Below, piece after piece: positions 8,840-31,270 of a stretch of DNA of 64,000 bases. Below the pieces are notes generated by a model that did not search any database, was not told where the DNA came from, and was given only the letters and a program-made list of their open reading frames with translations. Positions within the stretch are counted from its first letter, which is position 1. The number at the start of each line of letters is the position of its first letter. The position numbers were made by a program, and so were the translations under genes. This DNA comes from Escherichia phage 235Ecol030PP, in sequence record PP355091.1. One strand, written 5' to 3'.

Positions 8840-9310
8840 TTAATCATGTTTCCACACCCCATCGGTATTTGACCAAAGTCGCTGATTATCTGATCCTCGC
8901 CACAGCTTTTTAGTCGGAAGATTTTTCTCATACTTCCCATCAATAATAACATCAACATATTTAAGCATTTCTAGTTGTTTAATATCTTCAAACTTATATC
9001 CTGTCCACAACCAAATGCTTTTATTTGGATAAAGATTTTTTACTGTTTGAACAATGCAATGAATAACATCTCGATTATCAGGATAGAGAGGGTCACCTCC
9101 GGTTATAGTCAATCCTTCTATATAATCATTATTCAAACATTCAATTAATTGTTCTAGTGTTTCACCAGTGAATGGAATACCATTTCTAGCATTCCATGTT
9201 GATTTATTATAACACCCTTCGCATTTATGCAAACAACCTGTAACGAAAAGAACTGTCCTGCATCCAGGGCCATTCACAAAGCAGCACGGGTATATTCTGT
9301 CATAATTCAT
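8840..9310 (-). CDS. nrdG: Anaerobic ribonucleotide reductase activating protein NrdG (radical SAM)
   Basis: 156 aa; MNYDRIYPCCFVNGPGCRTVLFVTGCLHKCEGC (Cys cluster) and GGDPLY motif; adjacent to nrdD. Confidence 0.9.
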   Translation of the reverse strand: MNYDRIYPCCFVNGPGCRTVLFVTGCLHKCEGCYNKSTWNARNGIPFTGETLEQLIECLNNDYIEGLTITGGDPLYPDNRDVIHCIVQTVKNLYPNKSIWLWTGYKFEDIKQLEMLKYVDVIIDGKYEKNLPTKKLWRGSDNQRLWSNTDGVWKHD

Positions 9311-10139
9311 TTATATATTTCCAATTATAGCCTTCAACACTTTTACGTTCGCCATTTAAACATTTTAAAATATTTCCTTTGCTAGAAATATTAAAATATT
9401 TTGCTGCGTCTGGTATATAATTAAATGTTTTTAAAAGAACACCATCTTTATATGCGCCAAATAAATTAAGAGTATATTTTTCTCGAAGACGTTGATGTTT
9501 CCTTTTCATAACCTCAGGATTTGCATACGCCAACCTCAATGAATTTCTATGTTTTTCTTTTACTTCAGGTTTTTGCATTGCTAACTTAGTTAGCCTGGAA
9601 ATTTTATTTCTAACTTCGTCAGTTTTCATTGCATTTGACAAATTTAATAAAGTTTTATTTCTAACTTCAGGTTTTTGCATTGCTAACTTAGTTAGTTCTC
9701 TATGTCTTTTTCTAAAATCGTCATCCTTCCATATATTTTTCGATAATTTTGACATAGAGCGGTGAAATAATTCCTTTTCACCGGAATACAATTTAAGAAT
9801 TTCATCCAATTCATCTGTATTAAATCTATCGGTATTCGAGTTTATCATTCTATGAAAGGCATAACACATTTTACTATTACTTGTTTTAGCTAAATAGTAA
9901 TGAGCTAACGCGTGGTCATAATATGACAAATTAACAATATTCCATTTATCTGTTTTATATTCAGGAAATATAGATTTGGGAAGCACGTGATGTGCTTCCG
10001 TTTTTCCTTTTATTTTAGGATTATTATAATTTTTTGTTATCAAATCAACATATGACAATAGTAAATCATTATTTTCTTCAAATATTAAAGATAATTTATC
10101 ATTCACAAAATCGCAAGGATAAAATCTATCATAATTCAT
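9300..10139 (-). CDS. mobD: Free-standing HNH-family homing endonuclease (mobD-like) between nrdD and nrdG
   Basis: 279 aa; HNH core EAHHVLPKSIFPEYKTDKWNIVNLSYYDHALAHY; repeated KLAMQKPEV modules; start overlaps nrdD stop (ATGA), stop overlaps nrdG start; gene symbol by position only. Confidence 0.7.
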   Translation of the reverse strand: MNYDRFYPCDFVNDKLSLIFEENNDLLLSYVDLITKNYNNPKIKGKTEAHHVLPKSIFPEYKTDKWNIVNLSYYDHALAHYYLAKTSNSKMCYAFHRMINSNTDRFNTDELDEILKLYSGEKELFHRSMSKLSKNIWKDDDFRKRHRELTKLAMQKPEVRNKTLLNLSNAMKTDEVRNKISRLTKLAMQKPEVKEKHRNSLRLAYANPEVMKRKHQRLREKYTLNLFGAYKDGVLLKTFNYIPDAAKYFNISSKGNILKCLNGERKSVEGYNWKYINEL

Positions 10140-11415
10140 TGGTGTTTAACCCTATGCATGATTTCTTTATTTTTACCGAGATTAAATCCGCGTTCGTTCG
10201 GGTTTCCAAGATATCCGCATGTTCTTCTTATGGTGTTCATCTTTTTAGGATCAGTTTCTCCACAAATAGAACAAACAAATCCGTTTTCAGTAGGAGTCAT
10301 TTCATGGGTACTTCCACATGTAAAACATTTATCTACTGGCATATTAACACCAAAATAATCTAAATGCTGTGCAGCATAATCCCATACGGCCTCAAGACCT
10401 TTTAGGTTATTTTTCATATCAGGAAGTTCAACATAAGAAATGTGACCACCTGTCGCAATGAAATGATATGGGGCTTCGCGAGAAATCTTTTCAAACGGAG
10501 TAATATTTTCTTCTACTGAAACATGGAAACTGTTAGTGTACCAGCCTTTATCAGTAACATCTTTTACACTTCCATATTTTTCTGTATCAAGTTTACAGAA
10601 GCGATAACAAAGGTTTTCAGCAGGAGTCGAATACAAACTAAAAGCAAACCCAGTTCTTTCAGTCCACTGTTTAAGACGAGCATTCATTTTAGTTAAAATT
10701 TCTTGTCCAATATCACGACCGACAAGAATATTCAATTCATGAATACCAATGTATCCTAAAGACACTGAACTTCTGCCATTTTTAAATAACTCAATTATAT
10801 CGTCATCAGGTTTAAGACGAACCCCGAATGCACCTTCTTGGTAAAGAATAGGAGCAACAGTCGCTTTAACTCCTTTTAAGGAACTAATTCTACACATCAA
10901 TGCTTCAAAACATAAATCCATTCGTTCATTGAACAATTCAACAAATTTCTGTTCATTGAACTGTGTTCCAATATAAGAATCTAACGCAATACGAGGAAGA
11001 TTCAATGTTACAACGCCAAGATTATTACGTCCATCAAGAATTTCATTACCAGTCGAATCTTTCCATACGCTCAAGAAACTACGGCAACCCATTGGAGAAA
11101 CAGGAATAGATGAACCGGTGATAGCTTTATTGTTCTTAGCTGAAATAATATCAGGATACATTCTTTTGCTTGCACACTTTAGAGCAAGCTGCTTAATATC
11201 ATAGTTCGGATCGTCTTTGTAAAGATTAACGCCTTCTTCGACGAACATAACAAGCTTAGGGAAAATAGGAGTTATCCCATCACGACCAAGACCTTTAATA
11301 CGATTTTTCAGAATTGCTTTCTGAATCATTCGTTCAGTCCAGTCAGTTCCCGTACCAAATGTAATTGTTACAAAAGGAGTCTGTCCGTTTGAACTGAAAA
11401 GTGTATTTACTTCAT
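10136..11415 (-). CDS. nrdD: Anaerobic ribonucleotide reductase NrdD, exon 2 (3' splice site position approximate)
   Basis: Large ORF with class III RNR C-terminal region including glycyl-radical region; exon boundary inferred from expected ~605-aa length and a G at 11416; not experimentally defined. Confidence 0.75.
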
Positions 11416-12460
11416 CATTATATTCAGCATGAGTCGCAAATTCATGCTCGTTTATATGAAACAACAAAATTTGGATAGTCCATAGATATGCAACGTTCTT
11501 TTATAGTGCTAGGATGAAAATTTAGCGCTTTAGCTGCTTCTATATAAGACGTATACTTAATACCGTCAACAACCACATATTCAGGAACTTTATGAATAGT
11601 AGTCTTAATACTCAAAACAAGAGGATGAGTTTCGACTTCACTTTCAGTGCAATTTAAATATTCCGCTGCTTTTTTAAAACTTCTAAAAGTTTTATTTTTA
11701 AGCTTTATCGATACTTGTTTTTTACTTTTTCGACTATTGATATTATTTTGCACATGTTCCTTAGATCTTCCGTTTTTAGCATAATATTCAGCTACAGAAG
11801 ATTTTATATTGTTTTTATGAGATTCGGATAACACTTTACCCTTATGAGCATCTCTTAATTTTTGAATATGTTCTTCAGTATCCGGATGCTTATAAAACTT
11901 TTTACCGCCTATGGATTTATTTAAACATTTTTTGCTATAAAAATATTTACGTATGACCTCTTCTTCATGTTTTAATGCATCTTTATAACTATCAAATGTT
12001 TTTAAAATTATCCATTTAGTAGGTGTATCAGTTTTTAAGCGTTCATTTATATACTTAGATGACGTTGTGTAAGTTTTCCAGTTTGTGGGCTTGTTTTTAA
12101 TTGTTCTAAATTTTTTATAACCGATATAAATGTCGCCATTAGAAAACTTAACTAAGTATGTAAATGCGTCTTTATCTTTTATTTTAGTACAACGTCTTTT
12201 TATCCATTTCATTGTTTCACCTCGTATTCATAAGATAATCTTATTTATACAAGATGACTGCTGCATGTCGCCATGCAGATTAGACTATATCTTCATCTTT
12301 CGATGCCGGCCGTTTCGAATAGCATTAGCTTCTATTCTACACCGCTACATTCATCACGGTTAGTCGTTAGGCATTTAGTTCAAAAGAACATTTAGCACGG
12401 GATTGTCTACTAGAGAGGTTCCCCGTTTAGACCGGTTTTACATGAGCCTGAATTAAATTA
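11416..12460 (-). mobile_element. Group I self-splicing intron in nrdD (sunY-type) carrying I-TevII ORF; boundaries approximate (about +/-10 nt)
   Basis: nrdD reading frame interrupted by about 1 kb; contains GIY-YIG endonuclease ORF; putative P1 pairing (exon ...AUGAGU with intron GCUCAU) near 12461. Confidence 0.7.
11442..12212 (-). CDS. I-TevII: Intron-encoded homing endonuclease I-TevII
   Basis: 256 aa; MKWIKRRCTKIKDKDAFTYLVKFSNGDIYIGYKK... (GIY-YIG-type N-terminus); lies inside nrdD intron as in T4. Confidence 0.85.
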   Translation of the reverse strand: MKWIKRRCTKIKDKDAFTYLVKFSNGDIYIGYKKFRTIKNKPTNWKTYTTSSKYINERLKTDTPTKWIILKTFDSYKDALKHEEEVIRKYFYSKKCLNKSIGGKKFYKHPDTEEHIQKLRDAHKGKVLSESHKNNIKSSVAEYYAKNGRSKEHVQNNINSRKSKKQVSIKLKNKTFRSFKKAAEYLNCTESEVETHPLVLSIKTTIHKVPEYVVVDGIKYTSYIEAAKALNFHPSTIKERCISMDYPNFVVSYKRA

Positions 12461-12998
12461 ACTCATACGCCTGAAACGCGTCATAGACATCTTTTTCTGT
12501 TTTAGATTGAGCATAATTCAACGCATCAGCGATTTGCCATTTTTCTGCATCCTCAATATGTTTTGCATAGGTGCGTTTAACATAAGGAGAAAGTACTTTA
12601 TCTACATTCGCAAAAGTCGTTCCGCCATATTGATGGGAAGCAACCTGTGCAGTAATTTGTGCCATAATTGCAGTAGCAACGCCAATTGATTTAGGAGTTT
12701 CAATCTGTGCATTACCGAGCTTAAATCCGTTCTCAAGCATTCCTTTTAAATCTACTAAACAGCAATTAGTAAATGGAAGAGCAGGGGAATAATCAATATC
12801 GTGCACGTGAATAATTCCGCTTTCATGCGCTTTCATAATAAAAGACGGGACCATATTTTTGGCAATGTGTTTAGACACAATACCAGCCATAAGGTCCCGT
12901 TGAGTTGGAAAAACACGAGAATCTTTATTAGCATTCTCGTTTAAAAGGTCTTTATTAGTTTTATGAATCAATCCTTCAATTTCTTTTTCAATTGTCAT
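12461..12998 (-). CDS. nrdD: Anaerobic ribonucleotide reductase NrdD, exon 1 (5' splice site approximate)
   Basis: MTIEKEIEGLIHKTNKDLLNENANKDSRVFPTQRDLMAGIVSKH...; 4-nt overlap with gene 49 stop. Confidence 0.8.
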
Positions 12999-29812: not shown

Positions 29813-30091
29813 TTATTCTTTAAATCTAATCAATTTATTCATAGACTTTGAAACTTCGGCACGAACCTCATGTAGATTTTTGAGCTGTTCAAGACGCTGC
29901 GTATAGTAAGCAATTTCATCTTCTTCGAGACAGTCCTGCGAATCTTCTTTAAGATAACGTGCATAGTCCTGGAAAGCGTTACGGACTACTTCCTGGAAGT
30001 CATCAAGACTTTGAATTTTCTTAGGAGCAACAGATACACGACGAGGGGCAGTATAATACTCATAACCAAACCCTGCGCTTAATTGAGCCAT
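29813..30091 (-). CDS. Hypothetical protein (vs.x region)
   Basis: Track ORF 29813-30133; start set at [13 protein letters not shown] (ATGA overlap with upstream stop). Confidence 0.45.
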
Positions 30092-30357
30092 TAGTATTTT
30101 TCCTCTGGTTGGAACACTGCACGACAAGCCCACATACTGGCTTCTTTGAGTTTCGTTTTAGCAATAGTTAACTGATCGAGGCTTTCAGCATAATTCTTCG
30201 CGAATTCACAGTCTTCACAATTATCTAGTGCTTCCCAGAATTCATCGTATAAAGCGTCAAAGATAAGTCCTAAACGAACTTCAGCGTCTTTGATAGCATT
30301 CACTTTACCGATTTTCTCTTCAGTATGTGGCTTATAACCCTTAATATCTTCAATCAT
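30091..30357 (-). CDS. Hypothetical protein (vs.x region; candidate for the Acb2/Vs.4 position)
   Basis: Track ORF 30091-30393; start trimmed; no motif recognised. Confidence 0.4.
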
Positions 30358-30571
30358 ATTTGACTTCCTCACCAGTACATAAATCATATTCAACTAAACG
30401 AATGGGTTCATGAATGCCATATCCCTGAACAGAAATTTCTGTCGTAGGATAAATTCCATCAATATCACCCATATTCCACGCTTCATTAAATTGCTGTTCG
30501 CCTGAATTACTAAACCACTCGGCGAAAGCATTTAGCACATCTTCAGAACCTTCAATAATTATCTTTGCCAT
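30350..30571 (-). CDS. Hypothetical protein (vs.x region)
   Basis: 73-aa ORF. Confidence 0.45.
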   Translation of the reverse strand: MAKIIIEGSEDVLNAFAEWFSNSGEQQFNEAWNMGDIDGIYPTTEISVQGYGIHEPIRLVEYDLCTGEEVKYD

Positions 30572-30933
30572 TACAAACTTTCGGTGAAGGTACGAGCGAT
30601 AACGTCGCGCTGCTGTTCCGGAGTCAGAGAGTTAAAGCGAACTGCATAACCGGATACACGGATGGTCAGCTGCGGATATTTTTCCGGATGCTTAACTGCA
30701 TCTTCCAGAGTTTCACGACGCAGAACGTTAACGTTCAGGTGTTGACCACCTTCAATTTTAACTGTAGGCTGTTGCTCAATTTCAATTTCACGGGCATGCA
30801 AACCATAGAAAATTTCTGGGTCTACAAAAGAGTCCTCTTTAAAGGTTTTAGAAACGATAATTCGTGCTTGAATACCATCTTCAAAATAAATAGTACCTTT
30901 GTGTGTGCCTTCAAGAATTTGATATGCTTTCAT
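30571..30933 (-). CDS. Autonomous glycyl-radical cofactor (GrcA/YfiD-like)
   Basis: 120 aa; C-terminal [25 protein letters not shown] contains the glycyl-radical signature RVSGY. Confidence 0.8.
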
Positions 30934-30940
30934 ATAAACC

Positions 30941-31270
30941 TCAATTAGAAAATAAATTTATCCAAGATTGTTCTTTAATTAAAAATGGCTCAGAATCATA
31001 TGCCATTAAACTCTGTGTGATTAGTCCTTTAAAAGGCCCATCAATAAATTCCATGGTAAAATATGGAATTTTATTCATTAGCCGTGCATTAGGAGCCGTG
31101 CACAAAACTCTGCATCCTTTGAATACGCCTTTTTGTAATTTGTATTGCTTAGGATAAAATTCGCTCAAAATGTTATTTTTTGCCAAAATTTCAAAATGAT
31201 TCACCAATTTATTTTTAATAGTTTTTGGTGAAAAATAAAGATATTCGAAAAGCTGAGTGTCTGTCATCAT
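30941..31270 (-). CDS. Hypothetical protein (start at MMTDTQ, overlapping upstream stop)
   Basis: Track ORF 30941-31321; ATGA overlap with stop of 31267-31806. Confidence 0.4.

Follow-up and report, generated by a model that had tools for sequence, protein, structure and literature searches.

The 64-kb window analysed here (64,000 nucleotides of Escherichia phage 235Ecol030PP; record PP355091.1) carries a small gene at 30571..30933 on the minus strand. This interval is filled exactly by an ATG-started open reading frame encoding 120 amino acids, stop codon included. A putative Shine-Dalgarno sequence, GAGG, can be read 5 nt upstream of the ATG (30939..30942, minus strand) and would act as the ribosome binding site. 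Its stop codon shares bases with the start codon of the following gene (TAATG). A scan of the 28.5-33.5 kb region for promoters and terminators returned 20 sites, no more than chance would give (16.1 +/- 4.2). No promoter was assigned.

The surrounding gene order, vs.8-vs.7-vs.6-vs.5-vs.4-vs.3-regB-vs.1-vs, is that of phages RB32 and T4, and both the position and the orientation of our gene match vs.6. At the DNA level, the open reading frame shares 99.2 % identity with RB33, RB32 and HY03, and 97.8 % with T4. The encoded protein shares 118 of 120 residues with T4 Vs.6; Q54 and R73 are replaced in T4 by P54 and H73. The protein also matches PHROG 1209 over its full length, and a match over at least 80 % of the gene is seen in 744 phage records. 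Judged by order and sequence, 30571..30933 is vs.6 of a Tequatrovirus and the ortholog of T4 Y06I. The T4 genome contains only one matching place for vs.6. Therefore, by elimination, the ~14-kDa glycyl-radical protein of T4 named Y06I should be Vs.6. The original prediction had mentioned Y06I as a known T4 homolog; gene order, DNA identity and protein identity indicate an ortholog rather than a mere homolog. Two genes downstream, vs.4 (30091..30393, minus strand) matches the Pfam Acb2/Tad1 hairpin domain (E 1.1e-19), the anti-CBASS cyclic-nucleotide sponge family.

From the letters alone, the gene had been proposed to encode a stand-alone glycyl-radical cofactor resembling GrcA (YfiD), with the radical signature at its C-terminus. 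The C-terminal sequence quoted in that proposal was found in the open reading frame, and matches in Pfam, NCBIfam and the PDB, all far beyond chance, bear the assignment out. Gly_radical (PF01228; E 2.5e-18) is the sole Pfam domain, with residues 60-101 covering the last 42 model positions, and the Pfam search detected no catalytic barrel. The best-scoring family was NCBIfam GrcA (TIGR04365; E 1.2e-45, residues 20-120). Owing to the divergent N-terminal half, its 154.9 bits stay under the equivalog cut-off of 170 bits, which is an annotation threshold rather than a biological criterion. Phage orthologs of vs.6 are nonetheless named GrcA in RefSeq. Searching the PDB identified E. coli GrcA, solved by NMR (6owr; E 9e-42), and pyruvate formate-lyase, PflB (E 5e-26). 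Residues 58-120 pair with PflB 697-759 and are 78 % identical over these 63 amino acids. The prediction depended on the glycine of the RVSGY motif lining up with the radical glycine of these proteins. In both HMMER alignments it does so: Gly95 (GGT codon, 30649..30651, minus strand), the predicted radical site within RVSGYAV, is in register with GrcA Gly102 and PflB Gly734. The C-terminal 60 amino acids are identical to E. coli GrcA at 60 of 60 positions, and correspond to the structured part solved by NMR. This domain is predicted to have the beta strand, radical loop and C-terminal helix expected of a mimic of PflB residues ~693-759.

Pairwise alignment with E. coli grcA shows that vs.6 is a mosaic. 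The central feature is a tract of 169 consecutive identical bases (gene nt 179-347; 30587..30755, minus strand) that encodes the structured glycyl-radical domain. Upstream, in codons 1-59 and the first base of codon 60 (30756..30933, minus strand), identity to E. coli grcA drops abruptly to 48 % for DNA and 28 % for protein (17/60). Downstream, the last 13 coding nucleotides and the stop codon (30571..30586, minus strand) contain four synonymous differences from E. coli grcA; this segment is variable between lineages and overlaps the vs.5 start region. GC content changes across the upstream junction, from about 0.26-0.38 in the 5' half to 0.46-0.52 in the tract. The junction falls at codon 60, equivalent to YfiD codon 67, and so lies a few residues inside the structured domain starting at YfiD 61. 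The N-terminal half is still homologous to GrcA, with Q5 and the motifs A/V-R-x-x-V-x-K, E-D and R-E-V/I in common. Conservation of the 5' half extends across T4-like, T5-like and jumbo phages. Used alone as a protein query, the N-terminal half retrieved just six near-identical fragments. Overall, vs.6 is an old grcA derivative of full length, the 3' half of which looks brand new.

All 5,426 E. coli genomes contain a grcA with 97.8 % identity to gene nt 179-363, and the vs.6 tract was the sole match when the entire 64-kb window was compared with those genomes by megablast. For scale, over the 177-nt segment of grcA containing the tract, E. coli shares 83.6 % identity with Salmonella and 92.7 % with Citrobacter. 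We rejected pflB and tdcE as donors; their identity is about 82 %, compared with 97.8 % for grcA.

The two halves of vs.6 also differ in their variation between phages. Comparing the window with two Mosigvirus genomes gave a pS of 0.41 for the 5' half and 0.13-0.22 for the 3' half, the latter mostly due to the last 15 nt. In the 5' half, pN was 0.05 and pN/pS about 0.11, indicative of purifying selection. Among eleven T-even sequences from E. coli phages, the 5' half is 87-99 % identical to the window and the tract 97.6-100 %. The differences within the tract are singletons scattered around the E. coli sequence. On a larger scale, the 5' half falls at 80-90 % identity to the window in 152 phage records. 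The 3' half reaches at least 95 % in about 624 phage records and lies at 90-95 % in only 22, so that almost every one of some 650 E. coli-phage records belongs to the upper class. Contamination or an assembly chimera was rejected as a source of the tract, since hundreds of independent phage genomes contain it, T4, RB32 and IMG/VR contigs among them. T4 vs.6 shares the 5' junction and the E. coli-type tract with 235Ecol030PP, but its host-identical stretch reaches ~9 nt further toward the stop codon. More generally, the last 16 nt contain mixtures of host-type and phage-type bases that differ by lineage. These mixtures may be conversion tracts with different end points, or point mutations near the vs.5 start.

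Klebsiella phages carry an equivalent mosaic with a different host sequence. The phage-type 5' half of three Klebsiella Jiaodavirus genomes (KPV15, Roth77 and Shark_ER15) is related to that of the window. Their tract is 95-98 % identical to K. pneumoniae grcA and about 87 % identical to that of E. coli, has a GC content of 0.57 and encodes the Klebsiella-specific residues L76 and E80. We aligned two phages and their two hosts and counted the informative sites of the two main groupings (57 and 20). Within nt 1-178, 55 sites group the two phages together and 2 group each phage with its host. Within nt 179-360, 1 site groups the two phages and 19 group each phage with its host (Fisher p 8e-15 for the switch). 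Using K. pneumoniae grcA as the query, 134 phage records had at least 90 % identity and, among those listed, only Klebsiella phages were found; E. coli phages are 85-88 % identical to this sequence. The K. pneumoniae grcA sequence was taken from a chromosome filed as a plasmid in PLSDB. Several multi-megabase Enterobacteriaceae chromosomes are filed there in this way, for example a 5.37-Mb K. pneumoniae record (CP125156.1, L175).

Other phages gave a different picture. A third case of host tracking was not found with Salmonella grcA as the query, for which no phage reached 90 % identity. The lack of a Salmonella-type tract in phages means that host tracking is not universal. Slopekvirus, Karamvirus, Pseudotevenvirus, Krischvirus, T5-like and jumbo phages have no recent host-like tract; their tracts are only 70-85 % identical to any sampled host. 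In three IMG/VR contigs of 144-179 kb (L106-L108, positions 1383-1559), the domain protein is 100 % identical to that of E. coli GrcA, while the DNA is only about 83 % identical. Read from these identities, the three contigs are a clean example of purifying selection without recent conversion, in contrast to the tract of the window. A further group of IMG/VR contigs, up to about 154 kb in length (L113-L118 and L125, positions 1201-1590), encodes a 130-aa GrcA variant. Its N-terminal half is between the host and phage types (ARCLVAK, EYREVEIQ and an extra insertion after residue 10). This variant may represent a separate or more recent capture of the whole grcA gene.

The direction of transfer can be deduced. 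Phage-to-host transfer was rejected, since the tract has a host-like GC content (0.50; the phage flanks are at about 0.35) and host grcA, which occupies a conserved chromosomal site, shows the divergence normal between species. Hence, DNA moved from host to phage, and the most likely cause of the mosaic is repeated host-to-phage gene conversion. At least two events are required, one from E. coli and one from Klebsiella. T4 recombines efficiently through short homologous segments in the infected cell. In vs.6, the 3' half would be overwritten during infection as it undergoes homologous recombination with the current host's grcA. The conserved radical domain would keep DNA similarity to any enterobacterial grcA sufficient for strand exchange; even unconverted lineages retain identical runs of 20-29 nt. 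The junction would be fixed at the edge of homology because the 5' half is too diverged for exchange. As the 3' half is overwritten by host grcA, the phage would come to carry an exact copy of the host domain. We tentatively propose concerted evolution, in T4-like phages, of host grcA and the vs.6 half encoding the radical domain, about 170 nt being repeatedly overwritten while the N-terminal half is untouched. On this view, E. coli phages have the allele of E. coli and Klebsiella phages that of K. pneumoniae, base for base. This proposal is possible, though short of probable.

A simpler history would involve only two captures, one from E. coli and one from Klebsiella, with the resulting alleles spread by phage-phage recombination and no ongoing conversion by the host. 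T-even phages recombine readily among themselves, and the 5' junction is common to all E. coli phages examined. Tequatrovirus and Mosigvirus, for instance, could share the tract via phage-phage exchange instead of separate host events. We consider this history unlikely, though it is a credible competitor, and the observations that weigh against it are not decisive. In Tequatrovirus and Mosigvirus, the block of low divergence ends exactly where homology to the host ends, and the flanking 5' half is 12-13 % diverged between the two genera. Inside the tract, sequences depart from that of E. coli by dispersed singletons, and the last 16 nt have the lineage-specific mixtures expected if tract ends differ.

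It is far harder to sustain a history with one old capture of grcA, very strong purifying selection and no recent or repeated exchange with hosts. The C-terminal domain protein is, it is true, extremely conserved across all phage and host homologs, and L106-L108 encode the E. coli-identical domain at only about 83 % DNA identity. However, selection on protein sequence cannot hold about 45 synonymous sites identical. Within the tract, synonymous divergence from E. coli is near zero: the 3' half has only 2-6 synonymous differences, nearly all of them in its final 15 nt. The 5' half, by contrast, has reached a pS of 0.41 between phage genera. In addition, Klebsiella phages have the Klebsiella synonymous variants at 19 of 20 informative sites. 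We therefore regard a single old capture as very improbable, and repeated host-to-phage conversion remains our preferred account of the mosaic.

The function of vs.6 is best understood from its relatives. YfiD and T4 Y06I are the sole two spare-part proteins validated so far (PMC8683613). Briefly, residues 61-127 of YfiD are structured and duplicate residues 693-759 of pyruvate formate-lyase (PFL), while residues 1-60 are disordered, yet required for binding of cleaved PFL and for efficient radical installation (PMC8683613). As summarised in PMC8683613, Wagner et al. 2001 found that Y06I, like YfiD, restores oxygen-cleaved PFL once the activating enzyme PFL-AE installs the radical. With this biochemistry of the T4 ortholog as the basis, Vs.6, in which RVSGYAV is the substrate motif for PFL-AE, is very probably a spare-part glycyl-radical domain for oxygen-damaged PFL of the host. 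The original prediction had listed host PFL as a potential client; both the Y06I biochemistry (PMC8683613) and the complete identity of the C-terminal 60 amino acids to host GrcA support it.

The proposed sequence of events is as follows. During infection at low oxygen, active PflB would be cleaved by oxygen at the Gly734 radical. Vs.6 would bind the cleaved enzyme, so that residues ~54-120, equivalent to host GrcA 61-127, fill the site of the lost PflB C-terminus. The host activase PflA would then put a new radical on Gly95, and the output of acetyl-CoA and formate, hence the energy supply, would be restored. In a habitat with fluctuating oxygen, such as the gut, the infected cell would presumably still need PFL for acetyl-CoA and ATP. 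Shut-off of host expression by the phage would allow no new host GrcA to be made, for which the phage's own copy would compensate. The divergent N-terminal half may tune the binding of cleaved PFL or the efficiency of activation. As with the recombination mechanism above, the benefit to the phage and the rationale of host shut-off are ones that we infer. The gene is not intact everywhere. In two Klebsiella phages, KPV15 (L087, positions 601-962) and CPRSA (L089, positions 470-834), a frameshift interrupts the vs.6 homolog, and the annotation shows a pair of short open reading frames; the homolog is intact in their close relatives Roth77, Shark_ER15 and PMBT1. The frameshifts may reflect a lineage-specific loss, such that vs.6 is dispensable in some lineages, or sequencing error.

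A second client had also been suggested, namely the anaerobic ribonucleotide reductase of the phage itself. Here, Vs.6 would repair oxygen-cleaved NrdD, with the phage activase NrdG installing the radical. Both proteins are encoded within the window: NrdG at 8840..9310, and NrdD by two exons (12453..12998 and 10136..11467, minus strand) with another open reading frame between them. NrdD, like Vs.6, matches Pfam Gly_radical, and in three jumbo-phage loci (PHA46, L121 and L119) a grcA-like gene is found beside anaerobic-reductase genes. The sequence comparisons led us to reject this client, which we rate as very unlikely. BLASTP of Vs.6 against the NrdD of the window gave no alignment at the radical site (best E 1.7), and no class III reductase chain was retrieved from the PDB at E <= 10. 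The motif is RRTCGYLGN in NrdD but IRVSGYAVR in Vs.6. Moreover, with 100 % identity to host GrcA and 78 % to PflB, the domain is shaped for PFL. In 235Ecol030PP, vs.6 is also ~17.6 kb from nrdD, a separation that the original prediction had pointed out correctly.

The jumbo-phage loci merit description in their own right. These phages have genomes of about 340-357 kb, and the linkage of a grcA-like gene to anaerobic-reductase genes is absent in 235Ecol030PP. According to the record annotation, the grcA-like gene of Salmonella jumbo phage PHA46 (L094, positions 421-783) is between nrdD and nrdG. The same arrangement was read from open reading frame translations for L121 (positions 1195-1557), where the C-terminus of NrdD is itself RRVSGYLG. 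In L119 (positions about 1190-1557), an nrdG-like open reading frame lies two open reading frames downstream of the grcA-like gene. The linkage may mean that these genes are co-regulated as an anaerobic module, or perhaps that the client differs.

The nrd region of the window has features of its own. The split nrdD resembles that of T4, where the nrdD intron contains a homing endonuclease. The open reading frame between the exons (11442..12212, 256 aa) matches GIY-YIG (SegE-type) and NUMOD1 domains. Between nrdG and nrdD, a 279-aa open reading frame (9300..10139, minus strand) contains an HNH-like motif and gives weak NUMOD-like matches. It begins with ~10 residues, MNYDRFYPCDF, that echo the NrdG N-terminus, MNYDRIYPCCF. 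A mobile endonuclease seems to have inserted here and duplicated the start of the neighbouring gene.

Returning to host PFL as the client, the proposal that Vs.6 is instead a decoy, which titrates PflA or blocks host GrcA or PFL and so redirects metabolism rather than repairing it, is barely plausible: the N-terminal half is far from that of host GrcA (17/60 identical) and the equivalent half of YfiD governs binding and activation, but Y06I is reported to restore PFL activity with PFL-AE, as summarised in PMC8683613, and an exact copy of the catalytic radical domain with an intact RVSGYAV would be an unexpected design for an inhibitor.

The gene and function of vs.6 are already known; the T4 ortholog has been characterised biochemically and annotation as GrcA is routine in related genomes. 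Hence, the gene itself adds nothing new and the mosaic matters more. A strictly lytic T-even phage appears to exchange DNA with the host chromosome at a specific gene, and the vs.6 tract would be a natural and measurable marker of host-to-phage recombination. The mosaic suggests that the C-terminal domain must match the host PFL system exactly, and that the N-terminal half has a phage-specific role. The tract may also indicate the host species on which a T4-like phage recently grew. If the half-gene does evolve in concert with host grcA, the phage genome would itself record, through the tract, which host was used recently. Such evolution would, in addition, provide a rare documented instance of a virulent phage that has modified DNA and degrades host DNA, yet routinely copies host chromosomal sequence. 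In the searchable literature, which excludes key older papers, we found no report of host-phage exchange at vs.6 or grcA.

Vs.6 can be compared with several known systems. Outside phages, one is E. coli GrcA (YfiD, 6owr), also a stand-alone glycyl-radical cofactor and homologous over nearly the full length. The N-terminal half of Vs.6 differs in being 7 aa shorter and only 28 % identical, and the genes differ in context: vs.6 is in a block of phage early genes, whereas E. coli grcA is between ung and eamB. PflB 697-759, which is 78 % identical to the Vs.6 domain, is the part of PFL lost on cleavage by oxygen and replaced by the spare part. Unlike PflB, Vs.6 has neither the catalytic barrel nor Cys418/Cys419 and so cannot be an enzyme alone. 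The short GrcA2 and GrcA3 families (NCBIfam NF008341 and NF038360) match the radical domain also found in Vs.6. However, their models comprise 78-80 positions without the N-terminal half, and Vs.6 scores far under their cut-offs. For the exchange itself, a conceptual precedent is cyanophage psbA, in which host-derived patches arise from intragenic recombination between host and phage. As in vs.6, a phage-borne host metabolic gene swaps segments with the host copy and acquires a mosaic history. The gene, host and phage family are different, and the segment exchanged in vs.6 is almost base-perfect, with a fixed junction at a domain boundary.
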